NCBI GenBank assembly: GCA_036787895.1 | Contig: DAIQOK010000007.1 | Coordinates: 42,883 to 106,882 of the forward strand | DNA length: 64,000 nt | Direction of reading: 5' to 3' | From: Bacteroidota bacterium | Lineage (GTDB): Bacteria; Bacteroidota; Bacteroidia; UBA7662 | Shown here: in pieces, positions 113 to 44,775 of the stretch | How positions within the stretch are numbered: position 1 is the stretch's first letter | How the letters are laid out: each line of letters begins with the position of its first letter | The notes under the pieces: model-generated | The model's input: the letters and a program-made list of their open reading frames with translations, nothing else | Told to the model about the DNA's origin: nothing | The model's database searches: none | Made by a program: the position numbers and the translations under genes

Positions 113-3100
113 ATGAAATCTATCGTTTTTATCGATACCGAAATTGAGCCTAAAAGCTTGCGGATACTGGATATAGGGGGCATTAAGAGCGATGGCAGTT
201 CTTTTCATAAAACTTCGCCTCTTGATTTTATTCAGTTTTTAAAAGGAGTAAAGTTTATTGCGGGGCACAACGTTTTAAATCACGATTACAAATATATTGG
301 CAACCTAATTACTGAGGCCGGCATTGCTCATGATGACCTCATAGATACATTATTCTTATCTCCTTTGCTTTTTCCTGCCAAGCCTTATCATACTTTATTA
401 AAAGACGACAAGCTGCAAACGGAAGAGATGAACAATCCTTTGAACGATGCCATAAAGGCAAAGGAATTGTTTGACGATGAGCTTGCTGCCTTTCAACAGC
501 TGGATGAAACGCTGAAACAGATTTTTTACAATTTGTTGTTTGACAAAAGGGAGTTTATCGCCTTTTTCCGTTTTTTGGAATACAAAGGGGGTTCACTTGA
601 TACCGAAACATTAATTCGACAAGTATTTAAAAAAGAGTTGTGTACACAGGCCAATCTTTCCCAAATAATTAGCGAAAAACCTATTGAACTGGCCTATTGT
701 ATATCGCTGATTCATGCTTTGGTTAAAAACAAAAAAACACATTCTATCACGCCCCCATGGGTGCTGCATAACTTTCCGGATGTTGAAAATATAATGTATC
801 GTTTGCGCAACCAGCCATGTGTAAGTGGCTGTGAGTATTGCAACAATGCTTTGGATATACACAAAGGACTTACTAGATTTTTTGGATTTGATAAGTTTAG
901 AACATATGCCGGTGAGCCCCTCCAGGAAAAAGCAGCCAAGGCGGCCATTAACAACAAATCGATTTTGGCCATTTTCCCTACCGGTGGCGGTAAATCAATT
1001 ACTTTTCAGCTGCCAGCCTTAATGAATGGTGAGCAAGCAAGGGGATTAACGGTTGTAATTTCCCCCTTACAATCGTTGATGAAAGACCAGGTTGATAATC
1101 TGGAAAGAATTGGCATAACAGATGCTGTTACCATTAATGGTTTACTAGATCCTATAGAAAGAGCCAAATCGTTTGAAAGGGTAGCCGATGGTTCAGCCAC
1201 TATCTTGTATATCTCGCCCGAATCGCTGCGGTCAAAGACAATTGAACGTTTATTACTGGGCAGAAACATCGTCCGATTTGTGATAGATGAAGCACACTGT
1301 TTTTCTTCCTGGGGCCAGGATTTTAGGGTTGATTATTTGTACATAGGCGATTTCATTAAACAGCTCCAGGAAAAGAAAAATCTTTCGGAAGGCATACCCG
1401 TTTCCTGTTTTACCGCAACAGCAAAACAGAAAGTAATTGAAGATATACGAGAATATTTTAAAGATAAACTATCGCTAGATCTTGAATTATTTACCTCCCA
1501 AGCAACGCGAACCAATCTCCAATACAAAGTATTTCAAAAAGGCACTGAAGATGAAAAATATCAAGAAGCCAGAGCCTTGATAGAAGCCAAAAATTGTCCT
1601 ACAATTATTTATGTTTCCAGAACTCGAAAAGCTTATTTACTGGCTGAAAGATTGTGCATGGATGGTTTTATTGCCAAGCCCTATCACGGCAAAATGGACA
1701 AACAGGAAAAGTCAGAAAACCAGGATTCGTTTATTAACGGTGAAACCCAAATAATGGTAGCAACTTCTGCTTTTGGTATGGGGGTTGATAAAAAGGATGT
1801 TGGCATGGTGATTCATTATGAAATATCCGACTCACTCGAAAATTACATACAAGAAGCCGGGAGAGCTGGGAGAGATGAAAATATAGTTGCAGATTGTTTT
1901 GTACTCTACAACGAAGAAGATTTAAGCAAACATTTTATCCTATTAAATCAGACTAAACTCTCGATTAAAGAGATACAACAAGTTTGGAAAGCCATCAAAG
2001 ATATCACCAAATTTCGTTCGAGTGTTTCAAACTCCGCTCTCGAAATAGCTAGAAAAGCAGGCTGGGATGACAATGTGGTTGAAATAGAAACCCGGGTAAC
2101 CACGGCAATTGCAGCTCTGGAAGATGCCGGCTATTTAAAACGCGGGCAAAATATGCCTCGAATTTTTGCTAATAGTATTCTATCAAAAAATGCTCAAGAG
2201 GCCATTGATAAAATTTGTGCTTCTGAAAAATTTGAAGAAAAGCAAAAAGAAACCGCTATTCGAATCATTAAAAAGCTCTTTTCCAGTAAAAGTAGAACAC
2301 AATCGGCAGAAGATCCAGCCGAATCAAGGGTAGATTATATCAGCGATCATTTAGGTATTCTAAAAAAAGATGTAATAAACATCATCAACTTGCTTCGTGA
2401 AGAGAAGATTTTAGCCGATAATAAAGATTTAACTGCATTTATAAAAAAAGGGGAGAATAAAAATCGTTCACTCAACATAGTTGAGAATTATCGAAAAATA
2501 GAAAACTTCCTTCTAACGAAATTTAGTCAGGAGGAAAAAACATTTCACATCAAAGAACTGAATGAAGAAGCCGAAAGTCAAGGCTGTGATGAGGTATCGC
2601 CCAGTAAAATTAAAACACTCATCAATTTTTGGGCAATTAAAAATTGGATTAGGCGTCAAAACTTACAATATTCAAAGAACCATTTTTCCGCCGTCTCACT
2701 CTATAGTCCTGATAGTTTAAAAGAAAAATTAGAGAAACGACATGTGTTGAGTGAATTCATTATTAATTTACTTCATACAAGAAGTAGTGCAAATAGTGAA
2801 AGCAAAGAAGAGGAAGTTTTAGTTGAGTTTTCTGTACATGAATTAAAATCAGCTTATGAAAAACTACCTGATTTATTTAAACTAGCCATAGGCATAGAGG
2901 ATATTGAAGACGCCCTCTTTTACCTATCCAGGATAGAAGCACTTAAAATTGAAGGTGGGTTTTTAGTGGTCTACAACAGTTTAACCATCGAACGCATTGA
3001 ACAAGACACTAAACGGCGTTATAAAGTTGAAGATTACCAAAAGCTCAATCAGTTTTATGAAAACAAAGTGCAGCAAATTCATATTGTTGGTGAGTATGCC

Positions 3101-4918
3101 AAAAAAATGATCAACGACTACAGAGAGGCATTACAATTTGTAGAAGATTATTTTCAACTCAATTATCAGTCATTTCTAAATAAATACTTCAAGGGCAGTC
3201 GTCAGAATGAAATCAAAAGAAATTTAACCCCTGAGAAATTCAAACAACTCTTTGGAGAACTGTCTCCAACCCAATTAAAAATTATAAACGACAACGAAAG
3301 TAAACACATAGCGGTTGCTGCCGGCCCCGGTAGCGGAAAAACACGGGTTTTGGTTCATAAATTGGCATCGTTGTTACTGATGGAAGATGTAAAACATGAG
3401 CAATTGCTTATGCTTACATTTTCACGGGCTGCTACTACAGAGTTTAAAAAGCGATTATTAAAACTTATTGGAAATGCAGCGAATTTCATCGAAATAAAAA
3501 CCTTTCACTCTTATTGTTTCGATTTATTAGGTAAGGTTGGTAGCCTTGAAAAGTCAGATGTAGTTTTGAAAAAGACCATTGACAAAATCAAACGAAAAGA
3601 AGTTGAGTCAAGTAGGATTACCAAAACCGTTTTGGTAATTGACGAAGCCCAGGACATGAACGAGGATGAATACAACCTAATAGCTACGTTGATGGAGGAA
3701 AACGAGGAAATGCGCGTAATAGCCGTAGGAGACGACGATCAGAATATTTACGAATTCAGAGGTGCCAGTTCCAAATATCTAGAACGTTTTATAAAAGAAA
3801 ACAATGCAAGTAAGCATGAAATTTTAGAAAATTACAGAAGTAAAAGTAATTTGGTAACACTTACAAATCACTTCGCAGCCACTATTCAACACCGTTTAAA
3901 AAGCACGCCCATCGTTGCCAAACAAACAGATTATGGAAAGTTAAAATTAGTTCGTTATCAAAGTGGAAAACTAATAAGTCCGCTGGTAGAGGGTGTATGT
4001 AGTGCTGAATTAAGGGGGACTAGCTGTGTGCTTACCAAAACCAATGAAGAAGCACAGCAAATAACCGGTCTGTTGTTAAAGAATAAACTTCAAGCAAAAT
4101 TGATTCAATCGAATGAAGGTTTTAGTTTATACAACCTTTTAGAGGTTCGTTTCTTTTTAGATCAACTTAAATTGTCAGATGATGTATTCGTTATTTCTGA
4201 TGAGGTTTGGGATAATGCCATTAGAGCATTAAAAAGCAAGTTTCAACGCAGCACGAAATTTGAAATATGTTTGAATATCATAAAGGATTTTAAAGAAGTC
4301 AACCCCAAAAGGAAATACAAATCTGATTTAGAAGTATTCATACGTGAATCCAAGATGGAAGACTTCTACAATGAGCACGGAGAAACTATTTTCGTATCTA
4401 CCATTCACAAAGCAAAAGGCAAAGAGTTTGACAACGTTTTCCTGATGCTTGACAACATCACAGCAAATAGCGATGAGGCCAAAAGACAATTGTATGTAGC
4501 CTTGACCAGGGCCAAACAACAATTGGTTATACATACTAATTCAACAGTTTTTGATACTATTTCGGCCGAACAGTTGGAAAGAATAGTTGACTTTGATCAA
4601 TACGAACAGCCCAAAGAGCTGGTCATGCATTTAAACTTAAAAGATGTGTGGCTTGACTATTTTATTGACAAACAAAATGCAATAGCAGAACTCATAGCCG
4701 GAGATATGTTGGTTATAAAGAACGATGAATGTTTGAATTCAAAAGGGGATTCTATTTTAAGGTTTTCAAGACATTTTTTGGCACAAATTGACGAATTACA
4801 AGAGAAAGGCTATCAATTGAAGTCAGGCAAGGTAAACTTCATCGTGTACTGGTTAAAGGAAGGCACTACGAATGAGGTAAGAGTTGTTTTGCCAGAGCTT
4901 TATTTTGAGAAAGTTTAG
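113..4918 (+). CDS. Large multidomain DNA-processing protein: N-terminal DnaQ/epsilon-like 3'-5' exonuclease, RecQ-family SF2 helicase core, uncharacterised ~350-aa middle region, C-terminal UvrD/PcrA-like SF1 helicase core
   Basis: The protein starts with a DEDD-type exonuclease signature (FIDTEIE ... HNVLNHDYKYI). RecQ motifs follow: motif I FPTGGGKSITFQLPAL, motif II FVIDEAHCFSSWGQDFRVDY (DEAH), motif III FTATA, motifs V-VI MVATSAFGMGVDKKDVGMVIHYEISDSLENYIQEAGRAGRD. UvrD motifs lie in the C-terminal third: motif I AAGPGSGKTRVL, motif Ia LTFSRAATTEF, motif II VIDEAQDMNEDEY, motif III GDDDQNIYEFRGA, motif IV NYRS, motif V STIHKAKGKEFDNVF, motif VI LYVALTRAK. It is a single uninterrupted 1601-aa ORF with ATG at 113. 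Confidence 0.8.
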   Translation: MKSIVFIDTEIEPKSLRILDIGGIKSDGSSFHKTSPLDFIQFLKGVKFIAGHNVLNHDYKYIGNLITEAGIAHDDLIDTLFLSPLLFPAKPYHTLLKDDKLQTEEMNNPLNDAIKAKELFDDELAAFQQLDETLKQIFYNLLFDKREFIAFFRFLEYKGGSLDTETLIRQVFKKELCTQANLSQIISEKPIELAYCISLIHALVKNKKTHSITPPWVLHNFPDVENIMYRLRNQPCVSGCEYCNNALDIHKGLTRFFGFDKFRTYAGEPLQEKAAKAAINNKSILAIFPTGGGKSITFQLPALMNGEQARGLTVVISPLQSLMKDQVDNLERIGITDAVTINGLLDPIERAKSFERVADGSATILYISPESLRSKTIERLLLGRNIVRFVIDEAHCFSSWGQDFRVDYLYIGDFIKQLQEKKNLSEGIPVSCFTATAKQKVIEDIREYFKDKLSLDLELFTSQATRTNLQYKVFQKGTEDEKYQEARALIEAKNCPTIIYVSRTRKAYLLAERLCMDGFIAKPYHGKMDKQEKSENQDSFINGETQIMVATSAFGMGVDKKDVGMVIHYEISDSLENYIQEAGRAGRDENIVADCFVLYNEEDLSKHFILLNQTKLSIKEIQQVWKAIKDITKFRSSVSNSALEIARKAGWDDNVVEIETRVTTAIAALEDAGYLKRGQNMPRIFANSILSKNAQEAIDKICASEKFEEKQKETAIRIIKKLFSSKSRTQSAEDPAESRVDYISDHLGILKKDVINIINLLREEKILADNKDLTAFIKKGENKNRSLNIVENYRKIENFLLTKFSQEEKTFHIKELNEEAESQGCDEVSPSKIKTLINFWAIKNWIRRQNLQYSKNHFSAVSLYSPDSLKEKLEKRHVLSEFIINLLHTRSSANSESKEEEVLVEFSVHELKSAYEKLPDLFKLAIGIEDIEDALFYLSRIEALKIEGGFLVVYNSLTIERIEQDTKRRYKVEDYQKLNQFYENKVQQIHIVGEYAKKMINDYREALQFVEDYFQLNYQSFLNKYFKGSRQNEIKRNLTPEKFKQLFGELSPTQLKIINDNESKHIAVAAGPGSGKTRVLVHKLASLLLMEDVKHEQLLMLTFSRAATTEFKKRLLKLIGNAANFIEIKTFHSYCFDLLGKVGSLEKSDVVLKKTIDKIKRKEVESSRITKTVLVIDEAQDMNEDEYNLIATLMEENEEMRVIAVGDDDQNIYEFRGASSKYLERFIKENNASKHEILENYRSKSNLVTLTNHFAATIQHRLKSTPIVAKQTDYGKLKLVRYQSGKLISPLVEGVCSAELRGTSCVLTKTNEEAQQITGLLLKNKLQAKLIQSNEGFSLYNLLEVRFFLDQLKLSDDVFVISDEVWDNAIRALKSKFQRSTKFEICLNIIKDFKEVNPKRKYKSDLEVFIRESKMEDFYNEHGETIFVSTIHKAKGKEFDNVFLMLDNITANSDEAKRQLYVALTRAKQQLVIHTNSTVFDTISAEQLERIVDFDQYEQPKELVMHLNLKDVWLDYFIDKQNAIAELIAGDMLVIKNDECLNSKGDSILRFSRHFLAQIDELQEKGYQLKSGKVNFIVYWLKEGTTNEVRVVLPELYFEKV

Positions 4919-5447: not shown

Positions 5448-5870
5448 ATGACAGATAAACAAAAATCTCGAGAGAACAAATTGACAAAGTCAGTAAAGGT
5501 TTGTTGTGCTATAATTCTTAATGAGAAAAAAACACTTGTAGTTCAACGTAGTGAAAAGATGTCGTTACCTCTGAAATGGGAGTTTCCAGGTGGTAAAATA
5601 GAATTTGGAGAAACGGAAGAAGAATGTGTCCTTAGAGAGATAAAAGAGGAATTGAATATTGAAATTATCCTTATATCTAGATTAACCCCAACAACATTTT
5701 TTTATCCCAATATTGTGGTACATTTAGTTCCATTTTTGGCCGTATTTTCAAGGGGTGAGATGAAATTATCCGAACATATAAATTACAAATGGTTACAAAA
5801 GGATAAACTTGCTGAATTGGATTGGGCAGAAGCAGATATTCCAATATTAAAAGAATATATCAATATATGA
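5448..5870 (+). CDS. NUDIX hydrolase (MutT-like)
   Basis: The Nudix box GGKIEFGETEEECVLREIKEELNI fits the GX5EX7REUXEEXGU consensus. The protein is 140 aa. Its stop codon TGA overlaps the start codon of the next gene (ATGA at 5867-5870). Confidence 0.85.
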   Translation: MTDKQKSRENKLTKSVKVCCAIILNEKKTLVVQRSEKMSLPLKWEFPGGKIEFGETEEECVLREIKEELNIEIILISRLTPTTFFYPNIVVHLVPFLAVFSRGEMKLSEHINYKWLQKDKLAELDWAEADIPILKEYINI

Positions 5871-8800
5871 TAGAGGGTATTTACGAAGAGCTGGTAACGC
5901 AACTTGTAAGGCAAAATATAGGTGCTTTAGACCAGAGTTCATTCTATATTGAGAAGAGCGTTTTAGACAAAGAAGAGGCTGCAACAATTCTTGCCAAGCA
6001 TCTTGGTCAAACCATAAAACATGCCTTGAGCTATATTAAAGGCGAAAAATCTATAGAACTACAAATAGAGATTGCTAATAAAATTATATTATTTCTGAAA
6101 GAGGAACTGAAAAGAGAAGAATTTGATCAAGATCTTATAGCCATAGAGGGTGAAATATTGAAGGCTGTCTTTTCAAAAATTGATGCGCAATTTTCAGACA
6201 TAAACCTTCATTTAAAAGAAATTACCCCTTATACGCGACTAACACATAGTGAGCTCTTTACTGGTGGAAATGTGGGTTTGTCGCTAGAAAGCGAACTAAA
6301 AAAAGAGATTCTCTCAGCAAATGAAATTGATTTGCTCGTTTCCTTTATCAAGTTTAAAGGTATCATTATACTCGAAAGGGAATTGCGTGAGTTTGCAAAA
6401 CGTGGCGGAAAATTGCGCGTAATTACCACCACGTATATGGGCGCATCAGACTACAAGGCTATCCAGCTCTTGTCCAAATTACAGAATGCAGAAATAAGGA
6501 TATCCTACAATAATGGCAATGAACGCCTGCATGCCAAGGCTTATCTTTTCAAAAGGTCTACAGGTTTTCATACGGGATATATTGGTTCTTCCAATTTTTC
6601 GCGTTCAGCCCTTACTGATGGTTTAGAATGGAACCTGAAAATCACAACCAAAGAGGTAAGTCACATTATTGATAAGTTTCAGAAGACGTTTGATTCATAT
6701 TGGGTGAGTGATGATTTCGAAAAGTTTGATGATAGTATTCATAAGGAGAAATTGATTAGCTCACTGAATCAAGGAAGAATTGGAAAATCTACCTCATTAA
6801 ATACTAATTTTTTTGATGTTAAACCCTTTCCATTTCAGGAGGAAATACTTGAAAAGCTTGATGTTGAGCGTACAAAGCACCATAGAAATAGAAATCTAGT
6901 TGTAGCCGCAACCGGCACTGGTAAAACCGTTATTTCTGCATTTGATTTCAACAGATTCAAGAAAGATAACAGCTCTGCTAAGCTTCTTTTTTTAGCGCAT
7001 AGAAGGGAAATCCTAGAACAATCCATGAGTGCTTTTCGAGGCATTCTAAAAGATAACAATTTTGGCGAGTTATGGGTGGGAGGGATTGAACCTACGAGTT
7101 ATGAACATATTTTTGCATCCATTCAAATATTAAATAATCGTTTAAACGATTTAAATCTTTCTCCACAATATTTTGACTATATAGTAATTGATGAGTGTCA
7201 CCATTTAACTGCAAACTCTTATCGAGGAATCATTAATTATTTCAAGCCTAAAGTTTTAATTGGATTAACTGCCACGCCTGAACGAATGGATGGTGGAGAT
7301 ATTCAAGAAGATTTTCATCACCGAATTGCCGCTGAAATTCGATTGCCAGAAGCCCTAAACAGAAAGTTGTTATGCCCGTTTCAATATTTCGGAATTACAG
7401 ATAGTATAGATCTTTCTCGTATAGGGTGGGAACGCGGGCGATATATAGCCAGTGAATTGTCATCTATTTACACAGCAAACGATAAAAGGATTCGTGAAAT
7501 TATTGACGCATTAGAAAAGTATACCAGAGAACCTAGTGATGTTCGTGCACTTGGGTTTTGCGTAACTATGGAGCACGCCAAGTTTATGGCTGAGAAGTTT
7601 GCGCTTGCTGGACTCAAAGCAGATTATCTAACAAGCGACAACACCCAACACCGAGATAGTGTTAAAGAAATGTTGCTCAGGAAAGAAATTAATTACCTTT
7701 TTGTGGTTGATATTTTTAATGAAGGTGTTGATATTCCGGAAATTGATACCGTTTTGTTTTTAAGGCCAACAGAAAGTCTAACAATATTCTTACAGCAACT
7801 AGGTCGGGGGTTGCGTTTGGCAGAAAATAAAGAGGTCCTAACTGTTTTAGATTTCGTAGGAAATTCTAGACCTGAGTACAATTTTGAAAACAAATTCAGG
7901 GCACTCATTGGCAAAACCGCAACCACTGTAAAAAAAGAAATTGAAGACAATTTTCCGCATTTACCATTAGGCTGCTCTGTAATTTTGGAGAAAAAGGCAA
8001 AGCAGATTATTCTTGAGAATATCACGGCAGCCACTTCGCTCAACAGAAAACAACTAATTCTAAAGATTCAAAGCTTTCAACATCAAACATTACTCGATTT
8101 AAACTTGAAGAATTTTATAGAATTTTATAATATCCCACTTCAATTGATCTATAAGCGCGGGAGCTGGAAAAGACTTTGCCATGAGGCTGGTAGGATTAAA
8201 GATTTTGAAAGTACTAACGAAAAACAAATTGTAAATGCCATTTCAAATAAATGGCTTTCGTGTAACTCATTAAGCTATTTTGAGTTTGTTCGAACTTTAG
8301 CAGAAAATCAATTTAATATATCTGGAATTAAGTTCAATAAAGCTGAGAAGCAAATGCTTTTGATGCTACATTATGATGTTTGGCAAAGTGCAGGCGGCTT
8401 TTCTTCTTTAAAAAATAGTATTGAAGAATTGGGGAAAAACCAGATATTAATTGATGAAATAATAGAAGTCTTGAATATTTTAATTGACAGAGTTGACTTC
8501 AAAGAAATAGACATTGACCTACCCTACCAACAGCCCTTAAAAGTTCATGCGCGTTACACTAGAGATCAAATATTAGCGGCTTTTGGCCTTAGTACCTTTG
8601 AAAAAAAATCTTCAAACCGTGAAGGTGCTGCTGTAAATTTAGCACTGAATACAGAGCTTTTATTTATCAATTTAATTAAGTCAGAAGAAAACTTCTCTCC
8701 TACCACCATGTATGATGACTATGCGATTAATGAAAACCTGTTTCATTGGCAAAGTCAAAATTCAGCAGGCCCAGAAACTCCTAAAGGTTTGTCCTACTTA

Positions 8801-9007
8801 GACCATGAACGGAATCAAAAGAAAATATTACTTTTTATTCGCGAGAAGAATAAAGATGAATTTGGCAATACTCAGGGCTATGTGTTTGTAGGCGAAGCAA
8901 ATTTGCGAGATCATTATGGTGCAAAACCAATGAACATAAAATGGGAGTTGAATGAGCCTTTGCCCCATTTTTTGTGGCATGATGCAGCAAAACTGAGGGT
9001 GGGTTAG
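5867..9007 (+). CDS. PLD-family (HKD) nuclease domain + SF2 ResIII/DEAH-type helicase + C-terminal DUF3427-like domain protein
   Basis: An HKD-type motif RLHAKAYLF ... GSSNFS lies in the N-terminal third. Helicase motif I is VVAATGTGKTVISAF, motif II is IVIDECHHLT, motif III is GLTATPER, and motif VI is QQLGRGLR. The C-terminal ~250 aa (HARYTRDQILAAFG ... GYVFVGEANL) resembles DUF3427, which commonly follows this helicase type. I place the start at ATG 5867, overlapping the NUDIX stop. The ORF track begins at 5822 with a non-ATG start. Confidence 0.8.
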   Translation: MIEGIYEELVTQLVRQNIGALDQSSFYIEKSVLDKEEAATILAKHLGQTIKHALSYIKGEKSIELQIEIANKIILFLKEELKREEFDQDLIAIEGEILKAVFSKIDAQFSDINLHLKEITPYTRLTHSELFTGGNVGLSLESELKKEILSANEIDLLVSFIKFKGIIILERELREFAKRGGKLRVITTTYMGASDYKAIQLLSKLQNAEIRISYNNGNERLHAKAYLFKRSTGFHTGYIGSSNFSRSALTDGLEWNLKITTKEVSHIIDKFQKTFDSYWVSDDFEKFDDSIHKEKLISSLNQGRIGKSTSLNTNFFDVKPFPFQEEILEKLDVERTKHHRNRNLVVAATGTGKTVISAFDFNRFKKDNSSAKLLFLAHRREILEQSMSAFRGILKDNNFGELWVGGIEPTSYEHIFASIQILNNRLNDLNLSPQYFDYIVIDECHHLTANSYRGIINYFKPKVLIGLTATPERMDGGDIQEDFHHRIAAEIRLPEALNRKLLCPFQYFGITDSIDLSRIGWERGRYIASELSSIYTANDKRIREIIDALEKYTREPSDVRALGFCVTMEHAKFMAEKFALAGLKADYLTSDNTQHRDSVKEMLLRKEINYLFVVDIFNEGVDIPEIDTVLFLRPTESLTIFLQQLGRGLRLAENKEVLTVLDFVGNSRPEYNFENKFRALIGKTATTVKKEIEDNFPHLPLGCSVILEKKAKQIILENITAATSLNRKQLILKIQSFQHQTLLDLNLKNFIEFYNIPLQLIYKRGSWKRLCHEAGRIKDFESTNEKQIVNAISNKWLSCNSLSYFEFVRTLAENQFNISGIKFNKAEKQMLLMLHYDVWQSAGGFSSLKNSIEELGKNQILIDEIIEVLNILIDRVDFKEIDIDLPYQQPLKVHARYTRDQILAAFGLSTFEKKSSNREGAAVNLALNTELLFINLIKSEENFSPTTMYDDYAINENLFHWQSQNSAGPETPKGLSYLDHERNQKKILLFIREKNKDEFGNTQGYVFVGEANLRDHYGAKPMNIKWELNEPLPHFLWHDAAKLRVG

Positions 9008-9292: not shown

Positions 9293-9393
9293 ATGTCGAT
9301 TTTTTCCTGTTTCATCGACATATCCGAATAATAGGTTTATGCCATCGACATAAGCCACAGATATGTTTAAAACTGGGCAATATTTCGACATAT
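9293..9393. repeat. Cluster of four TCGACATA-type 8-bp motifs (one inverted, three direct); candidate protein-binding (arm-type/operator) sites
   Basis: atgtcgat at 9293-9300 (inverted); tcgacata at 9315-9322, 9345-9352 and 9385-9392. Spacing between copies is ~30-40 bp. The region is non-coding and lies immediately inside repeat copy A. Confidence 0.6.
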
Positions 9394-9484
9394 CTCGAAA
9401 ATAGCTTTACAACAGCGATAGGTTAACCAACTAAAAAACACACATGGGACCAGCAACCGTTTGGTTTTATAATCTCGTGTAGGG

Positions 9485-25900: not shown

Positions 25901-28344
25901 GCACTGGTGAGTAAAGTCGTACCTCCGTTCGCAATTTCAACCGATACAGGCACGGTTGAACCTGCTGCAACTGCTAAAGTAGGTGAAACTAGGGAACTTA
26001 GGACAAGATCTCTGGATGGAATTACCAGTTCAATCGCGCCTATATCCGGGTTAGACAAATCTCGTTGCGTTCCATTGATATCGGTGGTAACATAAGGAAC
26101 GGGAATTGCGGCAGCATTCAACTGCCCCGTTATAGCTGGTGTCAAATCGGTAGTAGAACTATAGCCCGGATCAGATAATAACGAATTGGCTTCTTGCGAA
26201 CTTGCCGTTTGGTAGCTTAACAAATCAGGATATGCTGTTGTTGCAACCCTAAACAACGGATTGTTGCCTTGATTCACATAAAACCAGTTATTATTTGAGG
26301 AGGTTAGGGTGGTCAAATGGTATGCCCCCACCAGATATAATGCCGGACGGACCGCTGTTGATGAACCGGGAAGTGCTTCTATTTGTACACTGTTATTTAT
26401 TATTCTCAACATATGAAATGCTGGAGCGGTGGACGAGCCGCCGGTAATATTAATAGCTCCAGCCACGGTTGTAGCCGCAGTTGAATAGCGGAGGTAAATT
26501 GAGTTGTGTACAATATCTACTGTATCAATTACATCCGTTGTGCTTCCAGAAATAGATATTGCCCTGGAGACGCCAGTGGCTGATTCAAAAGAGAGAACGT
26601 TGTTGTAGATATTTCCTGAGTTGACATTGGTGAAATCAATCCCATAAGCTCCAATACTGTTCATCAACCTATTATTCCTTACCGATGCCATTAGCGCACG
26701 GTTGATATATATGCCATAACTGGATGCATTGGTAGCAAATGGATTCGAAATAAAATTCGAATCTACAATAGCTCCCTGCGTACCGGCTAAATAAATACCA
26801 TAGTAATAGAAGTCAGTAATTGTGTTCCCTTTTACAAAAGGGTCCATCATATAAGCAGCACCTGCTGAGGTTGAACCCACTAAATAAATTCCATAATACC
26901 CTCCTTTTATGGTAGAGTTAATGACCTTTAACTCATGTGTTGGACTTGCCGCATATATATTTCTATTGTTAGAGCTTGTGGTTGCAGCTCCATCCGGTGC
27001 TTCAAGATAACAGTTCTCAATGCGAACATTGGTAACTGCAGAAGTATTTATATTCGCAGCAGCTGCCGTTGGCACAACAGTGCTGACTACACTAATATTT
27101 CGAATTATTATGTGGTTAACACCAGCCAGCGAAAGAATATTTCCAGTCGTACCTGGTCGCGTAAACACAACGTCGTTCCTATTACCAGTGGAAGAAGTAA
27201 TAGTAAGCGTATTCAATGCGCTTGTATTCGGCACACTTGATATATTAAAATTGCCGGAATAAGTGCCAGGTGCCAGCGATAGCGTGGTTGGCCCTGCAAG
27301 ACCAACGCAAGCAAGTCGATTAATGGCGTCCTGAAAATTAGTAAAGTTGGTCGGCGAAGCAGGAAGCGCTGCATTTACTGTATAAGTACCAGACAAAGGC
27401 TGCAGAGCATTTACCCTTACACCCGCCGAATAGCCTGTAGCCGAAGAACAGCTAACCTCACAACGATAGTACATTTGTAAGGCCGTTTGAGTAAGAGAAA
27501 CACCCGCGCTGGTTGCACCAGTTATATTAGTCCAGCTAATGCTGTCTGGAGAAGATTGCCACTGAAAAGTTTGACCCAAGCCGAACTGAAGCCCGCTTAA
27601 AGACAAATTAAAGGAAGAGCCTGTACACAATTCGGTATTGCTTGCCACAGCAGTACCAACATTTGTGGTTGCGATACAAGGATCACTCGTATAGTAAATT
27701 CGAATATTCGGTCTTCTTCTGTATTGATTGGTTAGTGTACCATTTAGCACCGCAGGGATAGAGGTGCTAATTGCACCTGCGATGTGGGTATTGAAACCAT
27801 CGGTAAATTGCCAAAGAACAGGATTTGCAGAATTTGGATTTGAGCCCGATACTGCCAAATCGTGTTCATTGGCAAATGAGAGTACATTTCCCGTGTATAA
27901 AAATGGAGTTTGCAAGTTAAATATAATCCATCCCGGACTGGAGGGTGGCAAATAGTTTGAATCACTAAAAACCTTAGTATGAGAAGATTCAATACTCGCC
28001 CAGGTAATAGTATTCGGCAATGGGAGCGTTGGAGTTACGCTTTCATTCTTCATCCAAAAGGACAAATAAATACCAGTATTACTAAAATCGTCTGTCGAAA
28101 CTTTATTAAATGCAACACCTGTAATAAGGGCGTTCGGCGGCAGACCAGCCTGTGTAAGTTCAGCCTGTGTCAAAATAAAATTGCCCCTGCCGTATCGATT
28201 CGCATTATTCCCTGACAGTCTTAAAAAAGGACTGTATCCAGAATTTGTAGCAGTATCAGTACTTGGGGCAAAAGTCACAAAAGACTGTGCTTCTGAACTC
28301 AAATAAGCGCTCAACATACCGAGCAGAATAATAAGTTTCTTCAT
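19957..28344 (-). CDS. Giant (2795 aa) secreted right-handed beta-helix repeat / lamin-tail-domain protein with T9SS C-terminal sorting domain (putative adhesin)
   Basis: A signal peptide MKKLIILLGMLSAYLSSEAQ opens the protein. There are many NxxIxNN-type parallel beta-helix repeats and an LTD-like segment (GALLISEFMYYKGG). The C-terminal T9SS domain (LYPNPATNQISIEINEQ ... SGAYSYRLEM) is clear. Confidence 0.8.
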   Translation of the reverse strand: MKKLIILLGMLSAYLSSEAQSFVTFAPSTDTATNSGYSPFLRLSGNNANRYGRGNFILTQAELTQAGLPPNALITGVAFNKVSTDDFSNTGIYLSFWMKNESVTPTLPLPNTITWASIESSHTKVFSDSNYLPPSSPGWIIFNLQTPFLYTGNVLSFANEHDLAVSGSNPNSANPVLWQFTDGFNTHIAGAISTSIPAVLNGTLTNQYRRRPNIRIYYTSDPCIATTNVGTAVASNTELCTGSSFNLSLSGLQFGLGQTFQWQSSPDSISWTNITGATSAGVSLTQTALQMYYRCEVSCSSATGYSAGVRVNALQPLSGTYTVNAALPASPTNFTNFQDAINRLACVGLAGPTTLSLAPGTYSGNFNISSVPNTSALNTLTITSSTGNRNDVVFTRPGTTGNILSLAGVNHIIIRNISVVSTVVPTAAAANINTSAVTNVRIENCYLEAPDGAATTSSNNRNIYAASPTHELKVINSTIKGGYYGIYLVGSTSAGAAYMMDPFVKGNTITDFYYYGIYLAGTQGAIVDSNFISNPFATNASSYGIYINRALMASVRNNRLMNSIGAYGIDFTNVNSGNIYNNVLSFESATGVSRAISISGSTTDVIDTVDIVHNSIYLRYSTAATTVAGAINITGGSSTAPAFHMLRIINNSVQIEALPGSSTAVRPALYLVGAYHLTTLTSSNNNWFYVNQGNNPLFRVATTAYPDLLSYQTASSQEANSLLSDPGYSSTTDLTPAITGQLNAAAIPVPYVTTDINGTQRDLSNPDIGAIELVIPSRDLVLSSLVSPTLAVAAGSTVPVSVEIANGGTTLLTSAALSYQFNNGPIVSETFTGSLPFQQSTTFTFSTPLVLPSSGPLVLKVWGSNPNGLSDGNLSNDTILANLCFTIAAGTYSIGGTSPSFASFAEFENQLNCGGISGPVTINFHPGTYVLNATFGQFPNGTNSTLTFTSATGNSADVILTNGGTGSTFTLNGSSYITFANLKFKNDSPPAAGSAMISTSGSTALTVTSCTFEGYNIDSTTSANNLALVLVASSQSTIIGNNFSDLYYGISNNGGTPNYSNANQYILNNFSRIYHTPLYLQSESFALISQNVVTGVSGASTAGQGLYLLRAENTTIEGNRMTGLTGNYGFFLSNISGSATAPNRIYNNVISGELAGTTRRLISVTGNTSDGLDYLEIDHNSLEMISNHTSGTVAGTVHFLGGTVASPAYNGVKFRNNSVKTVMNGSSLVYTSLYFVNESITNVLESNYNNLFHANQAGPLVRIGTTEYLNLAAWQTATTKDVNSIFADPQYISSSNLDILPFSPNIGAATPLANITTDVLGNNRSSSSPDIGAYENFTLALNLFALASDRPSTSVLGGAIDTVSAFIKNLGTVTVNSFTASYQLGNGTVVSQLFNQTIPFGDTAYIVFSTPVNLQAAGSEVLRIWVSSPNGGIDEDFTNDTLNINLCVGLGAGTYTLGSPTSNFQTLTDLNAVLTCGGIVNGPVTIQVEFPGNKFAGQFVVPSIVNTSPHNTIHYVGNGDTIAFTPAATTNTPAIVLLGTNHATIDGFVVDMRSISGANTSGILLTDNASFNRITKNRVLMDRTVTAATLAGIASSGGVNSVTSATNANYNRIDSNFVSGAYFGIRLNGAAVPGSNISNQIVGNQVEDSYTYAIYLLQAVDCEIVGNEITRPSRTALGALYGVYLGTGTVGTRVDRNRIYNAHGIATSTSLNFYGVYSSSATATAANPNIISNNAIYRLANGGTGSMYGFYNSGSGFNYYYHNTVIIDNPASTSGASYGFYQTTSVPGIQLKNNIFYINRAGSGLKYGIYQSTAATQLETDHNAFWIQTPPGSTGLAHIGYRSSARTTMADWKAAGGVGTPYDSNSVAVNPDFINLPADNFTPSNVFLNNSGANLLAFVTQDLNGQNRSASPDMGALEFVPAGVDAAINSASIISGGNIYAPGVVCLTNLLSAVSIEVVNAGTLNLDSTIVFYQHNNGPVVTDTVFTSLSSAQVVTYVFRQQVQLLSGVNTLRVWAGKSGDVNTANDTVTVQYNIGVSTVLSVPHTDNFDSGVLPASLCVVNGANSNAEVLATGGSTSLNISGTHSLVLSGNASGTPWVTANNTNWHTLNPAFQTYVDYYVDASQIQRLKLSFKLLQLYRAANSTHFRVLVNGQPLAAMGRTTTDFIAVSAASNTDTMRLEYDLDDFVGDTVKITLHSNVRYNYAGAPPSVNIVDDLMFFVPADARFDSITAVTPACSPTAKTVAARIFSVPLLNTVSLKYTVNNGTTTSLPMTLSGNYYTATIPAAASGDTVRYFVETVSSTSITTVSAVQLYADDYLFINAGPDQTISVGDSAILSTTTRGGSSGGQGALLISEFMYYKGGSATTRQTTFPPYLPNTSVDDDYVEISNISTSPVNLAGLVVKAAIGTITHQLTFPTGAVLAPGAVAIIMPGTAANDIANNLYFLGGADNNEWLSSTSPAAVVLYESNGTTVIDAVRYNSADFPSSFGVPASEWPSNSNISGSASVVGLFRKTIFDTNSANDWSLNSADTVSSIGYLNRGYTLISNDTVGWSTLAGVYLGQGRQFVVRPTVTTTYVATYSDGNCVKRDTVTVFVNQQLPDVGVYRIVSPANGAIVNSPQTVTVMIRNFGQIPATGFDVSYRVMPGNFIRTNTILASIAAGDSLQHSFSEQWNPTQGMTFELCAFTLMPGDNNRANDTSCVTISNTTSTQNLGLINSVLYPNPATNQISIEINEQVEKGATLDIFDAMGRKVKTIQVDAGLSRIDVNIEGFASGAYSYRLEMQSKLSFGKFVKSE

Positions 28345-40455: not shown

Positions 40456-41943
40456 TTACACCAAAACTACCAGCACCTTGCTGGCAAAATCGGCTTCGAG
40501 CTGAACGGGTTGACCTTGCACCAAAACCGTGGTTTTGTCGGCATTGCTGGCTTCAAGTTCAAGCACACTATTCGGATTGATGCCCAGTTTCCACAAACGT
40601 GTGGTGATGGCGTCGTTGAGTTGTTCTGTGACAACCAGGGCCTTTTGTCCGCTGGCCAGTTTGCTCAAAACCGTGGTTTCTCGATTACTTTGCGGGATCG
40701 GAGAGCCGTGCGGATCGAATTTGGGGTAGCCTAGCTGTTGTTCAACCTCGCGCAAAAACTTCTCGGGCAAACGGTGTTCGAAGGCCTCGGCCTGGGGGTG
40801 GATTTGATCGGCGGATAAGCCCATTTCCTGCACGAGGTAAGTCTCCCATAAACGATGTGCACGGATGAGCTCGTAAGCACGGCGTTTGCCCGCCAGGGTC
40901 AGGTCAAAATCGGGACCCTTGAGCTCCATCAAGCCCTTTTGCTGCAAACGCCGAATACGAGCAGCCGTTTTTGCCGGGGTCAATGCCAACTTCCCGGCCA
41001 GTTTGCTCACCGACAACTCCGCTTGTTCTTTTTGTTTAACCGCCTGTTTGAGCACATCTTCCAGCGCGGCTTCTTTTTGCCGGCGACGTTTCAACATATA
41101 CTGTATGATCAGGCCTTTTTTAGGGGCAAACATCACCGCCAGGCTGTATTGAAAGGCACCCACCAGGGTCATGGCCGGACCTGGAGTAGTCTCGAACAAG
41201 ATGGCCAACACCAGGCCGGTAACGCTGCTGATAACGCCTACCGTTGCCGCAATAAGCAACATGGTTTTCAGCCGACCGGTTAGCAGATAGGCTGTAGAAG
41301 CAGGAATAATCAGCATGGCAACCACCAGTATAACTCCCACCGACTGCAAGGAAGCCACGATAGCAAAACTCAGCAGCAACATCAGGAAATAATGCAGCAG
41401 ATTGGCGTTGATGCCACTGGTTCGGGCTATCACGCTCTGAAAAGTGGTCACAAAAAAGAAACGGTAAAAAGCGGTAACACACACCAAGGTAAAAAAGGTG
41501 ATGAGGCCGGTAAGCCACAAATCCTGATCACCAATGCCCAAAACGTTCCCGAAGAGAAAATCTTTCATATCAAGATGCACGCCTTCTTGCCGGGTAACAG
41601 CGCTGATACCAATAATACCCAGGGCAAACATGGCAGAAAATACGATGCCGATTGCAGCGTCTTCCTTGGTGCGAGCATTACGTTGTAACCAGGTAATAAG
41701 CACCGCTGCAATTATGCCAGCCACTACCGAGCCCACAAAAAAGGCGAACACATTGTGTCCGGCTATCATAAAGCCCGCAACTACACCCGGCAGTATGGCA
41801 TGAGAAAGGGCATCGCCGATAAGCGACATATTTCGTAATACGATAAAACAGCCCAATACGCCACAGCTGATACCTACCAGCATTGACGCTAAAAGCGCTC
41901 TCTGGGCATAGGGATAACTAAAAACTTCGAGTAAAGTCTCCAT
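40456..41943 (-). CDS. Metal (Mn/Zn/Fe) ABC transporter permease (ABC-3 family) fused to a C-terminal DtxR/MntR-like metalloregulator + FeoA-like domain
   Basis: The N-terminal ~280 aa form a polytopic ABC-3 permease (LIGDALSHAILPGVV). The C-terminal region has a DtxR-type wHTH (LTPAKTAARIRRLQQKGLM ... YELIRAHRLWETYLV) and an SH3-like FeoA tail. Confidence 0.75.
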   Translation of the reverse strand: METLLEVFSYPYAQRALLASMLVGISCGVLGCFIVLRNMSLIGDALSHAILPGVVAGFMIAGHNVFAFFVGSVVAGIIAAVLITWLQRNARTKEDAAIGIVFSAMFALGIIGISAVTRQEGVHLDMKDFLFGNVLGIGDQDLWLTGLITFFTLVCVTAFYRFFFVTTFQSVIARTSGINANLLHYFLMLLLSFAIVASLQSVGVILVVAMLIIPASTAYLLTGRLKTMLLIAATVGVISSVTGLVLAILFETTPGPAMTLVGAFQYSLAVMFAPKKGLIIQYMLKRRRQKEAALEDVLKQAVKQKEQAELSVSKLAGKLALTPAKTAARIRRLQQKGLMELKGPDFDLTLAGKRRAYELIRAHRLWETYLVQEMGLSADQIHPQAEAFEHRLPEKFLREVEQQLGYPKFDPHGSPIPQSNRETTVLSKLASGQKALVVTEQLNDAITTRLWKLGINPNSVLELEASNADKTTVLVQGQPVQLEADFASKVLVVLV

Positions 41944-41945
41944 GA

Positions 41946-43682
41946 TTACGCATTTAAAGCTTCAGCTTTGTCGTAAAGCGCCTGGCTTCCACTGAAGGTG
42001 CGCAGTATGTTTTCTTCAGTCATCACCTCACTGGCCGGGCCAAAGGCAATCAAGCGGCGATTGATCAAAATCAAATCATCGAAATATGCCTTGGCTTTCG
42101 ACAAATCGTGATGGATGATGATAACTGTTTTGCCATCGCTAACCAGCCGCTTTAATATGGTCATGATTTTATCCTCCGTGGTCACGTCTACACCTACAAA
42201 AGGTTCATCCAGGAAGTAGATATCTGCTTCCTGCGCCAACGCCCGGGCGATAAATACCCGCTGCTGCTGCCCACCCGAAAGCTCACTGATTTGTTTGTGC
42301 TGCAAGGCTTCAATATCCAATTCCTGCATATGTTGCCTGGCTTTATCATGATCGACTTTATTGAGCCGGTCAAAGGTTTTTTTGTGCGGATATCGACCCA
42401 TAAGCACAACATCCAAAACCGTTGCCGGGAATTGCCAGTCGATTTCTTCCTTCTGCGGCACATAGGCGATGTGTTTGCGCAAGGCATTAACGGGCGCACC
42501 ACCGAGCTGAATGTTGCCCTGATCGGTGGTAACCAACCCTAAAATAGCTTTGAACAAGGTGGATTTACCCGATCCATTCGGGCCTATCAAACCATATAAT
42601 TTACCGGCCGGTAGGCTGAGACGAAAATTGTTGAGGATGACTTTATTGTCGTAAGCCACAGTGAGCCCCTTTACTTCGAGCGTATACCCTTGCTGTAAAA
42701 TCTGCTTGGGCTGGGGTTGTATGCCTACGGCCACTACAGCAAAGGCAACTACAAAAAAAGCTGCGACTATGGCCAATAAAGCCAGGTCTTTGCGCCGACT
42801 TTCGGCCGGACCGGCTAGCAATAACCCGTCGAGTAAAACTTGCGTATTGTGTTCAAGCATGCCCAAATAACTATCTGCTCCAGAGCCTTTGGGGCCCATG
42901 CTGTCGGCATACAGCTTACCACCAATCCGGATACCTGCATCACTGGCGAGCTGTTGCATGAGTTTGGGGTTGATGGTACTCTCTACAAAAATGGCAGGCA
43001 AGTCATATTGCTCAATTACAGCAATCAGCGCCTGCATATCTTCTGTACGCACCTCAGCATCGGTAGTTGTGCCTAAAACCGACACAACCTTGAATCCATA
43101 GCGATTGCCAAAATAGCGAAAAGCGTCGTGTGAGGTGGCGATAACCCTTTTTTCCGCCGGAATAGCAGCAACCCGGGCTTGTATGCTGCTGTCTATTGCA
43201 GCGAGTTTTAGATCATAAGCCTGGTATCGGGCTAACAATTCGACTGCTTTTTCCGGTCTCAGGCTCAATAAGGCTTCGTAAATATTCCGCACATAAATAC
43301 GACCATAATTGGCGCTCATCCAGGCATGCGGATCGTAGCTATCGGCATGTTCGGCACTTCCAATAGGCTGAATACCGGCCGTTACTTCCACCAACCGGGA
43401 GCGGCTACCGCTGTTGTCGATGAGTTTTTGGAGCCAGCCTTCGAGATTGAGGCCGTTTTGTAAGATGAGGTCGGCATCCGCAAGACGTTTGGCGTCGCCA
43501 GGCACCGGGTCATAGATGTGGGGATCGGAGCCCAGCGGTAATATGCTGCTGACTTCAAAATCCGGCCCGGCAATTTGCGCTGCCATATCGGCTATAAAGG
43601 TGGTTGTAGCCACTACCTTTTGCTGTGCCAGCACTATTGCACTCGATAAAATGAAGGATATGAAGATGAATAACTGTTTCAT
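41946..43682 (-). CDS. Fused metal ABC transporter substrate-binding protein (ZnuA/TroA-like) - single TM - ABC ATPase
   Basis: A signal peptide MKQLFIFISFILSSAIVLAQQ precedes a TroA-like SBP (TTTFIADMAAQIAGP ... HIYDP) and one TM helix (LALLAIVAAFFVVAFAVVAVGI). The ABC ATPase motifs follow: Walker A GPNGSGKST, signature LSGGQQQRV, Walker B IYFLDEP. The start is the ATG at 43682. Confidence 0.75.
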   Translation of the reverse strand: MKQLFIFISFILSSAIVLAQQKVVATTTFIADMAAQIAGPDFEVSSILPLGSDPHIYDPVPGDAKRLADADLILQNGLNLEGWLQKLIDNSGSRSRLVEVTAGIQPIGSAEHADSYDPHAWMSANYGRIYVRNIYEALLSLRPEKAVELLARYQAYDLKLAAIDSSIQARVAAIPAEKRVIATSHDAFRYFGNRYGFKVVSVLGTTTDAEVRTEDMQALIAVIEQYDLPAIFVESTINPKLMQQLASDAGIRIGGKLYADSMGPKGSGADSYLGMLEHNTQVLLDGLLLAGPAESRRKDLALLAIVAAFFVVAFAVVAVGIQPQPKQILQQGYTLEVKGLTVAYDNKVILNNFRLSLPAGKLYGLIGPNGSGKSTLFKAILGLVTTDQGNIQLGGAPVNALRKHIAYVPQKEEIDWQFPATVLDVVLMGRYPHKKTFDRLNKVDHDKARQHMQELDIEALQHKQISELSGGQQQRVFIARALAQEADIYFLDEPFVGVDVTTEDKIMTILKRLVSDGKTVIIIHHDLSKAKAYFDDLILINRRLIAFGPASEVMTEENILRTFSGSQALYDKAEALNA

Positions 43683-43824
43683 AAAGTAATTCTCCGGGAC
43701 AAATATAGTATTTTTAGGCTTATCTAAATATATTTTTAGTCTGTTCGTTTTTATTCGTGGGCGCATATTTTATTTTGGTATTTCAGGTAAAAGCGGCTTA
43801 AATTCGACTGTTTTTATTTTAAGC

Positions 43825-44775
43825 ATGGAACAAACCATCCCTTCAATCGATCTGGCTGAGTTTTTATCAGGCGATCCGCAGCGCAAAGCTGCCTTTGTAC
43901 AAGCCATCGGTAAAGCCTACGAGGAAGTGGGTTTTGTAGCCGTCAAAAATCACGGGCTGAGTGATGATTTAAGTGCCGCCTTGTATGCGCAGGTGCAGGC
44001 CTTCTTCCAATTGCCTCAAGAGACCAAAGCTAAATACGAAATTCCGGGTCTCGCCGGACAACGCGGTTACACAGGTTTCGGGAAAGAACACGCCAAAGGT
44101 CGCAGTACAGGCGATTTGAAAGAGTTTTTTCAGTTCGGACAGGAAGTAAACGATGGAGATCCCATTAAAAGTGAATATCCGGCGAATGTAGCTGTAGCAG
44201 AATTGCCTGAATTCAACCCCAAAGCCAGGGAAGCCTATGTTACCCTCGAACAAAGTGGTCGACATTTACTTCGCGCCATTGCTTTGTTTTTAGGGCTCGA
44301 CGAAAATTATTTCGATCAGCATATCCACAATGGCAATAGCATTTTACGTGCGATTCATTACGGCCCAATTACTGAAGAACCGAAGGATGCCGTTCGTGCT
44401 GCCGAGCATGAAGACATTAACCTCATCACCCTCCTCATGGGTGCTTCGGCCGAAGGTTTGCAGGTACTCAGCAAAACTAACCAATGGGTTGGCGTGACCG
44501 CGCTTCCTGAGCAAGTGGTGGTGAATGTGGGAGATATGCTGCAAAGGCTAACCAACAACCGACTCAAAAGCACCACCCACCGTGTAGTAAATCCGCCGCG
44601 TGAAAAGTGGGGTATGTCGCGCTACAGTATTCCATTTTTCCTGCATCCCCGTTCCGGCATGCGGCTCGATTGTCTGCCCAGCTGCGTCACGTCAGAGAAC
44701 CCGCTACATTATGCGCCTATCACCGCCGGCGAATACCTCGACGAGCGCCTGCGTGAGATTGGCCTGAAAAAATAA
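43825..44775 (+). CDS. 2-oxoglutarate/Fe(II)-dependent oxygenase (isopenicillin-N-synthase-like)
   Basis: HxD ... H iron-binding pattern (IHYGPITEE ... EHEDINLITLL ... TTHRVVNPP). Confidence 0.75.
   Translation: MEQTIPSIDLAEFLSGDPQRKAAFVQAIGKAYEEVGFVAVKNHGLSDDLSAALYAQVQAFFQLPQETKAKYEIPGLAGQRGYTGFGKEHAKGRSTGDLKEFFQFGQEVNDGDPIKSEYPANVAVAELPEFNPKAREAYVTLEQSGRHLLRAIALFLGLDENYFDQHIHNGNSILRAIHYGPITEEPKDAVRAAEHEDINLITLLMGASAEGLQVLSKTNQWVGVTALPEQVVVNVGDMLQRLTNNRLKSTTHRVVNPPREKWGMSRYSIPFFLHPRSGMRLDCLPSCVTSENPLHYAPITAGEYLDERLREIGLKK

Follow-up and report, generated by a model that had tools for sequence, protein, structure and literature searches.

A predicted two-gene metal importer of Bacteroidota with its receptor fused to the ATPase and a DtxR-type module fused to the permease

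Cluster A-I metal ATP-binding cassette (ABC) importers are the main high-affinity routes for zinc, manganese and iron uptake in bacteria, and they have been studied as systems of separate components. The locus described here raises the question of how such an importer is organized and controlled when receptor and motor are joined in one polypeptide, and channel and regulator in another. It lies in a stretch of 64,000 nucleotides (nt; hereafter the window) from a Bacteroidota bacterium (assembly GCA_036787895.1, contig DAIQOK010000007.1, positions 42,883 to 106,882 of the forward strand), where gene A encodes a metal-binding protein joined to an ABC ATPase and gene B an ABC-3 permease joined to a DtxR/MntR-type module. 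Based on domain and structure comparisons, homologue alignments and the conservation of an upstream operator, we arrive at a reading to which we assign a probability of about 0.55: the two genes would form a self-contained high-affinity divalent-metal importer, in which a free DtxR acts at the operator and the fused module serves as a cytoplasmic metal sensor gating transport.

Architecture of the two fused proteins

The features of gene A (coordinates are those of the window; lengths in amino acids, aa) are the following:
41946..43682, minus strand: gene A, 578 aa, comprising a signal sequence, a cluster A-I metal-binding protein, a transmembrane (TM) helix and an ABC ATPase (from the open reading frame (ORF), Pfam, NCBIfam, homologues and AlphaFold)
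43623..43682, minus strand: N-terminal signal-like hydrophobic segment, aa 1-20, MKQLFIFISFILSSAIVLAQ (mean hydropathy 1.98 over aa 1-19)
42819..43622, minus strand: TroA/ZnuA-like substrate-binding domain, aa 21-288 (PF01297, closest solved chains, invariant ligands)
42726..42782, minus strand: single TM anchor, aa 301-319, within model helix 292-321 (mean Kyte-Doolittle hydropathy 3.07)
41949..42683, minus strand: ABC ATPase domain, aa 334-578 (Pfam ABC_tran, PsaB match, motifs)

The start chosen for gene A is the second ATG (43682), the mechanical ORF reaching an ATG at 43766, 28 codons further upstream. The homologues (572-592 aa) have N-termini matching the 43682 start and lack the 28-codon extension; moreover, the operator and the -7 promoter box described below both lie downstream of the 43766 ATG, overlapped by the ORF extension (43683-43766). 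The 43682 start is favoured because the homologue N-termini agree with it and because operator and -7 box would otherwise fall inside the coding sequence, and annotations using the 43766 start would be wrong.

In Pfam, the ZnuA family (PF01297) matches aa 23-284 with 260 bits (cut-off 29), over model positions 1-261 of 263, and ABC_tran (PF00005) matches aa 350-495 with 114 bits. Hydropathy picks out exactly two hydrophobic segments, aa 1-19 and aa 301-319. The first, assigned from hydropathy, is signal-like, ends in VLA|QQ and has no lipobox Cys, and a comparable hydrophobic N-terminus is found in all aligned homologues. The AlphaFold model (mean predicted local distance difference test score, pLDDT, 82.7) consists of the binding protein (21-288), a long helix (292-321), a disordered linker and the ATPase (334-577).

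The solved chains closest to the binding domain are MntA (5hx7) and TroA (1toa), and the model has the long interlobe helix at aa 143-172. The putative ligands H55, H119, H185 and D260, assigned by alignment and by reference to the known sites of TroA and PsaA, do not vary among 21 homologues; H185 aligns to the Glu of MntA (TSHDAF versus TSEGAF). None of the ATPase motifs varies in the same 21-sequence alignment, and gene A has each of them in full (Walker A, GPNGSGKST; signature, LSGGQQQR; Walker B, YFLDEP; H-loop, HHD). The best solved match of the ATPase is PsaB (7kyo_B, E=8.5e-54), and the chain stops directly after the core domain, leaving out a C-terminal sensing domain of the ZnuC type.

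As for the topology, the flanks of the TM helix across the 21 homologues carry 67 Lys/Arg residues after the helix versus 43 before it, with acidic residues enriched before, which supports a cytoplasmic ATPase and an extracytoplasmic binding domain. The first-pass annotation had read gene A as a signal-bearing TroA-like binding protein linked by a single TM helix to a cytoplasmic ATPase, and Pfam, hydropathy, AlphaFold and the family flank charges agree with it; the opposite outcome, a binding domain placed in the cytoplasm, is at odds with the same flank charges and with the unfused orthologues (see below), which are tail-anchored and secreted.

Gene B begins 2 nt after gene A ends (the junction reads TAA-TC-ATG), and its features are:
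40456..41943, minus strand: gene B, 495 aa, an ABC-3 permease plus a complete DtxR/MntR-type module (from the ORF, Pfam, NCBIfam, homologues, model and Foldseek)
41113..41943, minus strand: permease domain, aa 1-277, about nine TM helices (PF00950, PsaC match)
40900..41112, minus strand: linker helix continuous with DtxR helix 1 (aa 278-306, conserved EDxLK), followed by the winged helix-turn-helix (wHTH, aa 306-348) (model)
40690..40899, minus strand: DtxR metal-binding/dimerisation domain, aa 349-418 (PF02742, alignments to Mn-dependent repressors)
40459..40668, minus strand: SH3-like third domain of the DtxR module (Pfam FeoA), aa 426-495 (FeoA 28 bits, beta strands in the model)

The permease half is matched by the ABC-3 family (PF00950) over aa 10-272 with 247 bits and, in Foldseek, by PsaC (7kyp) with E=3.5e-16, a target-normalised TM-score of 0.70 and 38% identity. 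The gene B model (mean pLDDT 76.2) has nine long helices before residue 273, the number of TM helices in PsaC (PMC8346216). Residues D44 and H48 of the permease (GDALSH motif) are invariant in 32 gene B homologues and show the same Asp-x3-His spacing as the coordination site D46/H50 of PsaC (PMC8346216).

The second half begins without a break: helix 278-306 runs from the last TM helix into helix 1 of the wHTH/dimerisation/SH3 module, and the model continues with helices 312-319 and 323-335 and with strands at 339-348. Pfam assigns aa 349-418 to Fe_dep_repr_C (PF02742, 83 bits, cut-off 27) and aa 426-492 to FeoA (28 bits, cut-off 23). Over aa 306-340 it gives generic wHTH matches only, weak and under their cut-offs, and the DtxR helix-turn-helix (HTH) model PF01325 has no match in gene B at E<=0.01. 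In Foldseek the second half is matched by full-length three-domain repressors (SloR, Mn-dependent MntR, ScaR, IdeR and DtxR), with a root-mean-square deviation of 1.2 A over 128 residues to DR2539. This third domain is also present in the free DtxRs encoded at sister loci, and the segment labelled FeoA is, by sequence and model, the ordinary third SH3-like domain of the DtxR family and not a separate acquisition, so that gene B contains an entire regulator gene's worth of protein. Some gene B homologues (~421 aa) are without the SH3 domain. The fusion of permease, DtxR-type wHTH and SH3 domain, as first annotated, is borne out by Pfam, the model and Foldseek alike, with FeoA now read as the normal DtxR third domain. 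An internal start at M283, which would yield a free DtxR module, was considered and rejected, the Met not being conserved and no conserved internal start codon being present.

The metal domain aligns to the Mn-dependent repressors 5zr4, DR2539 (8pvt), SloR and ScaR. Ten ligand positions (E295, D296, H363, E367, H382, E386, E389, H390, D410 and H412) are invariant in the 32 gene B homologues, as are the motifs RAHRLWE, AExxEH and DPHG, though the proteins are just 52-62% identical overall. By motif alignment we take the invariant residues to be the equivalents of M10/C102/E105/H106 and H79/E83/H98 of DtxR (the alignments were computed; the residue numbers are those customary for DtxR and MntR), and the Asp/Glu replacements at these sites are those typical of Mn-responsive members of the family.

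With the ATPase, binding-site and channel motifs intact, the transport machinery looks functional. Its metal specificity is not assignable by homology because no metal-specific NCBIfam equivalog cut-off is reached, neither by the binding domain and ATPase (AztC 230 versus 350, MntC 194 versus 400, MntA ATPase 231 versus 400, AztA 189 versus 220) nor by the permease (AztB 206 versus 280, ZnuB 107 versus 284); the imported metal could be Zn, Mn or Fe. Since the window has only one ABC-3 gene, the channel would be homodimeric and the complex A2B2.

The operator and the role of the fused DtxR module

The first-pass annotation had pointed to ~43700-43820 as the place to look for an operator, and two candidate elements are found there:
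43713..43728, no strand assigned: DtxR-box-like palindromic putative operator, TTTAGATAAGCCTAAA in minus-strand reading (pattern match)
43700..43707, minus strand: predicted Bacteroidetes-type -7 element TATATTTG (TAnnTTTG), placed between the operator, which ends 5 nt before it, and the ATG, which follows after ~18 nt

The operator was recognised by eye, by comparing the upstream regions of three divergent loci. Its pattern, TTTAGRNNNNYCTAAA, has a single exact match in the window (43713-43728) and 46 exact matches in 572 kb of related loci, where composition would lead to 0.3. Nearly all of these sites (44/46) lie at most 200 nt upstream of the first gene of an operon, which is a free dtxR in 32 cases, a fused gene A in 11 and a permease-DtxR gene in 1. 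The half-sites resemble the DtxR/IdeR iron box TTAGG...CCTAA, the site of locus L150 reading TTTAGGTTAGCCTAAA. An inverted-repeat finder run over 43640-43860 returned nothing, the operator arms being just 5-6 nt long in the window copy. TAnnTTTG is the established -7 promoter consensus of Bacteroidetes, and an exact copy stands 5-10 nt after the operator in 24 of the 46 related sites. A sigma-70 promoter scan did no better than shuffles, the sigma-70 consensus not being that of Bacteroidota, and Rfam and tRNA scans of the window gave no hits and no riboswitch upstream of gene A. Given a conserved DtxR-box operator together with a -7 box, promoter repression by a DtxR-family protein appears to be part of the system, the metal operon being, as far as the sequence can tell, repressed at its promoter by such a protein.

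The 142-nt operator region (43683-43824) is shared with a divergent gene for a 2OG-Fe(II) oxygenase (43825-44775, plus strand), next to which lies a chromate-transporter gene; the neighbours are the same at locus L081. This divergent gene for an iron-dependent oxygenase could be a further target of the DtxR box.

Which DtxR, then, would read the operator? In the unfused sister operons a free three-domain DtxR gene (~220 aa) stands directly behind the operator, ahead of the binding-protein gene, and the recognition helix of these free DtxRs is near-invariant (TSAASVTDM(L/I)K(R/K)L). The fused proteins present another picture. Among the 32 gene B homologues, pairwise identity drops from 0.71 (permease) and 0.64 (metal domain) to 0.25 in HTH helices 2-3 and 0.28 in the wing; the free DtxRs have 0.60 in the HTH and 0.73 in the metal domain. 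The closest comparison is that of the window's gene B with that of L081: the two proteins are 84% identical overall and their operators near-identical, with recognition helices that share just a few residues. The fused wHTH, then, lacks constraint on its DNA-reading helix, which the free DtxRs of the sister operons conserve. Free and fused DtxR genes also co-occur in at least eight loci (L097, L104, L114, L118, L135, L003, L006 and L009). Because the HTH is relaxed and ligands and operator are invariant, the simplest reading is a division of labour, with the operator left to a free DtxR and metal sensing to the fused module; the operator would most likely be bound by a canonical free DtxR/MntR orthologue when metal is plentiful. 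Of the two kinds of regulation that the first-pass annotation saw as built into the transporter, the allosteric option is, for the fused domain, better supported than the transcriptional one, the HTH being unconserved, and the patterns of conservation suggest a free DtxR, and not the fused wHTH, as the reader of the DtxR-box palindrome.

In the mechanism that we propose, gene A would be exported by its signal sequence, leaving the TroA-like domain outside on the tether of a single TM helix, beyond which the chain goes on as the cytoplasmic ATPase. Gene B would form the homodimeric channel. In the resulting A2B2 unit the tethered binding domain, the extra TM helix and the cytoplasmic DtxR-type module would each be present twice. 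In metal-replete cells, a free DtxR/MntR orthologue would bind the palindrome abutting the -7 element, and the fused DtxR module would act as a built-in cytoplasmic metal sensor. In DtxR/MntR proteins the metal bridges helix 1 to the dimerisation domain. As helix 1 is here continuous with the last TM helix of the permease, metal binding could pass straight to the channel: the permease dimer would become stiffer or locked once a metal links helix 1 with the dimerisation domain, and uptake would stop (trans-inhibition). We advance more tentatively, and at somewhat less than even odds, the wider proposition that a DtxR-fold repressor has here been captured as a protein-level gate, with its DNA surface decayed and the movement of helix 1 fed into the last TM helix, together with a receptor tied to the motor, two per complex.

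Several points weigh against this reading of the locus. The wHTH fold of gene B is retained (pLDDT ~85) and the EDxLK of helix 1 is conserved. No free DtxR gene is found in the window or within ~4 kb of the other window-type operons, and the presence of a free DtxR in genomes with such operons is assumed. That the two DtxR modules could reach each other and act on the permease is a proposal. On the side of gene A, the window protein's own TM flanks are near neutral (+3/-2 before, +1/0 after), so that the topology call rests on the family and on the signal sequence. Finally, in the equivalent fusion of Chlamydia trachomatis, YtgCR, cleavage does take place and the DtxR domain functions as a repressor (PMC6504234, PMC7755916).

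This last precedent leads to the best surviving alternative, namely autoregulation of the YtgCR kind, in which gene B, either cleaved or membrane-tethered, would bind TTTAGR-N4-YCTAAA through its own metal-loaded wHTH and repress its own operon, with no need of a separate regulator. It would account for the conserved operator at loci with no DtxR close by other than the fused one (the window, L081-L084, L086-L087, L102, L103 and L106). The DtxR fold is also complete in its three domains and has every metal ligand, and the recognition-helix region stays rich in Arg and Lys. Nevertheless, no part of the fused protein is less conserved than the recognition helix and the wing, though the operator hardly varies among these loci; in 32 sister loci it is a free DtxR, its helix invariant, that stands directly behind the same operator, and free DtxRs occur beside fused ones, as listed above; PF01325 fails to match gene B at the threshold already given; and gene B has no conserved internal start codon that would give a free module. 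We regard autoregulation as the less likely reading, yet as an alternative that deserves to be kept in view.

A second alternative, which we consider improbable, is that the fused module is a structural or assembly remnant, for instance a dimerisation aid for the homodimeric permease, with no regulatory output. The fast evolution of the HTH and SH3 domains (identity 0.25 and 0.28) and the loss of SH3 in the ~421-aa homologues would fit such a decay, but the ten invariant ligand positions and the motifs, kept at so modest an overall identity, are hard to explain unless there is selection on metal binding.

Distribution, origin and surroundings of the fused genes

A third alternative, that frameshifts, assembly errors or gene calling have joined separate genes, draws on the many related operons whose separate genes lie a few bases apart (usually 3-21 nt), such that a single-base error could mimic a fusion, but it is effectively refuted because full-length fused homologues recur in many independent assemblies, with the linker and TM region of gene A in frame across 21 diverse sequences and with 30 fused loci obtained independently.

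The searches behind this statement gave ~5,000 matches per protein at E<=1e-10, of which the best 120 of each were listed. For gene A and for gene B, these best 120 are mostly full-length with both domain sets present; the fused ones come from NCBI, JGI, ENA and Logan assemblies, including complete genomes, and the homologues of the two genes often share contigs. The gene pair recurs in two loci that were looked up, of which one belongs to a complete genome, that of Pontibacter sp. G13 (CP134696.1). All named fused homologues among the matches listed are from Bacteroidota, including the most divergent fused representative (35% identity). The recurrence of the fusions, and their survival of the frameshift objection, are as the first-pass annotation would have them; its description of them as unusual holds against textbook systems and does not hold within Bacteroidota, where they are common, and the permease-DtxR fusion has a characterised precedent in YtgCR (PMC6504234). 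The full layout of binding protein, TM helix and ATPase is nevertheless confined to about ten clusters among 1.84 billion representatives at 50% identity. In that representative search, two-stretch matches of 500-660 aa turned out to be tandem ATPase-ATPase proteins and were rejected as binding-protein fusions.

A metagenome scan with an alignment of the binding domain only gave 80 loci at 42-67% identity, with 30 fused proteins and 53 separate binding proteins. The TM helix is kept in all 30 fused loci and forms the C-terminal tail in all 53 unfused orthologues, where it is followed by a short tail usually carrying basic residues; in most of the unfused loci the aligned ATPase gene starts 3-21 nt downstream of the binding-protein gene. 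Since the unfused orthologues are tail-anchored and the ATPase gene lies just downstream, we infer the loss of a stop codon: gene A looks as if it arose in this way from a tail-anchored binding-protein gene and the adjoining ATPase gene. The topology would already be settled by this route, because the cytoplasmic end of the unfused anchor carried positive charges before the fusion.

These 53 unfused binding proteins (L094-L162, e.g. L108 3962-4987), being tail-anchored, are neither free periplasmic proteins nor N-terminal lipoproteins, and most of their operons have no permease gene within 3 kb downstream of the ATPase gene. A set of longer gene A variants (660-720 aa; P0194, P0172; loci L088-L092) has long low-complexity stretches rich in Ser, Thr and Gln after the signal sequence and repeated GSGAQQET-like tethers preceding the TM helix, so that low-complexity tethers flank the binding domain. 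Loci L088-L092 have no exact operator match, and their permease-DtxR proteins are without the SH3 domain.

Outside Bacteroidota, the loci that were checked among the matches listed of the full-length gene A scan always have the binding protein and the ATPase as separate ORFs. Permease-DtxR fusions without the SH3 domain occur also in Flavobacteriales, Planctomycetota and Desulfobacterales loci. Fused proteins read RLWExYL where free DtxRs read RLWE(V/T)FL, a hint that the fusion may be ancient and single. In a Desulfobacterales metagenome-assembled genome (MAG), both permease genes of L006 (5743-7182 and 7134-8483), an otherwise canonical operon, have C-terminal DtxR-like domains, with a free DtxR gene upstream as well, and L009 (Planctomycetota) and L003 (Owenweeksia) each combine a fused with a free DtxR copy. 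A further arrangement is seen in P0286 (555 aa, Bacillota MAG, MCG0239422.1), which consists of a DtxR (N-terminally truncated in the record), an SH3 domain, a low-complexity linker, a TM helix and a TroA-like binding protein. The adjoining genes of these metal operons have evidently been fused in several ways across phyla.

Elsewhere in the window, positions 1-10000 form a low-GC block (0.35-0.38 versus ~0.48-0.51 elsewhere) with two giant ORFs, 113..4918 (1601 aa), with DEAD/Helicase_C and UvrD-type helicase domains, and 5822..9007 (1061 aa), with a PLD-family nuclease, ResIII/Helicase_C and DUF3427; the block looks like a horizontally acquired defence or restriction island. Positions 19957-28344 (minus strand) encode a 2795-aa secreted giant protein with beta-helix, lamin-tail, CARDB and C-terminal Por_Secre_tail domains, the last being a sorting domain of the type IX secretion system (T9SS), in keeping with the assignment of the window to Bacteroidota.

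Significance and comparison with known systems

A receptor tied to the motor through the membrane would fix the number of receptors at two per transporter and abolish receptor diffusion, which bears on the debates on how many binding proteins an importer needs and on how docking is coupled to ATP hydrolysis. If the DtxR module gates transport, it would be a second, independent solution to metal trans-inhibition beside the zinc-sensing domain of ZnuC, and would show clearly how a transcription factor can become an allosteric domain, with a new use of the DtxR fold and a new importer subunit topology in a subset of Bacteroidota. The set of loci holds every intermediate (free dtxR, tail-anchored binding protein, separate ATPase and mixed forms), and the steps of gene fusion can be read from it directly. 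In current annotation half of each protein goes unmentioned, because NCBI names cover the substrate-binding protein alone (gene A) or the permease alone (gene B); the JGI names are those of the fusions.

With regard to its parts, the system resembles TroABCD-TroR of Treponema pallidum, ZnuABC, AztABC and MntABC/PsaBCA, with which it shares a TroA-like His-His-His-Asp site, the Asp-x3-His of the ABC-3 permease and regulation by the DtxR family. The third ligand of gene A is a His, as in TroA, AztC and ZnuA, and not the Glu of PsaA and MntC, and the closest solved chains to the two proteins overall are PsaB, PsaC, MntA and TroA. The difference lies in the organization: in these cluster A-I systems the components are all separate, and the binding protein is either free or lipid-anchored at its N-terminus.

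For the gating that we propose for gene B, the likeness is with E. coli ZnuBC, a transporter of the same class, in which the substrate, once in sufficient supply, is bound by a domain that the transporter carries on its cytoplasmic side, and transport is locked. Other trans-inhibited importers are MetNI and ModBC, with the sensor at the C-terminus of the ATPase. In ZnuBC, it is the C-terminal Zn-sensing domain of ZnuC that locks the transporter closed (PMC12236471). In all three the sensor is on the ATPase and is not of the DtxR fold; here it is on the C-terminus of the permease, and the gating is a proposal.

Covalent joining of a binding-protein fold to a core subunit is found in GlnPQ and OpuA, where the partner is the permease, and a binding-protein-like domain is joined to the ATPase in NrtC and CmpC (PMC10945777, PMC13287603). 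In the latter two, however, the domain is C-terminal, cytoplasmic and regulatory, whereas that of gene A is N-terminal, has a signal-like segment ahead of it and is followed by a TM helix before the ATPase. Because it is N-terminal, preceded by a signal sequence and separated from the ATPase by the TM helix, the gene A domain appears to be a working extracytoplasmic receptor. The searchable literature yielded no account of an ATPase to which an extracytoplasmic binding protein is linked by a TM helix, and no paper on either fusion in Bacteroidota.

The nearest precedent for gene B is the YtgABCD system of Chlamydia trachomatis, where YtgCR likewise unites an ABC-3 permease and a C-terminal DtxR-like domain in one ORF, and where a DtxR-type operator is found at the operon's own promoter (PMC6504234, PMC7755916). 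YtgR is cleaved off and has been described as the only iron-dependent regulator identified in that organism (PMC6504234, PMC7755916). There, YtgA (binding protein), YtgB (ATPase) and YtgD (a second permease) are separate; here, the first two functions share one chain and a single permease gene is present. The gene B module includes an SH3 domain, which may or may not set it apart from YtgR; its HTH is unconstrained, and free DtxR paralogues accompany related operons. The fusion of a permease to a DtxR domain is known already from YtgCR; its combination with a fused receptor-ATPase in a two-gene operon appears, to judge from the searchable literature, to be a new variation on it, and is well populated in the databases.

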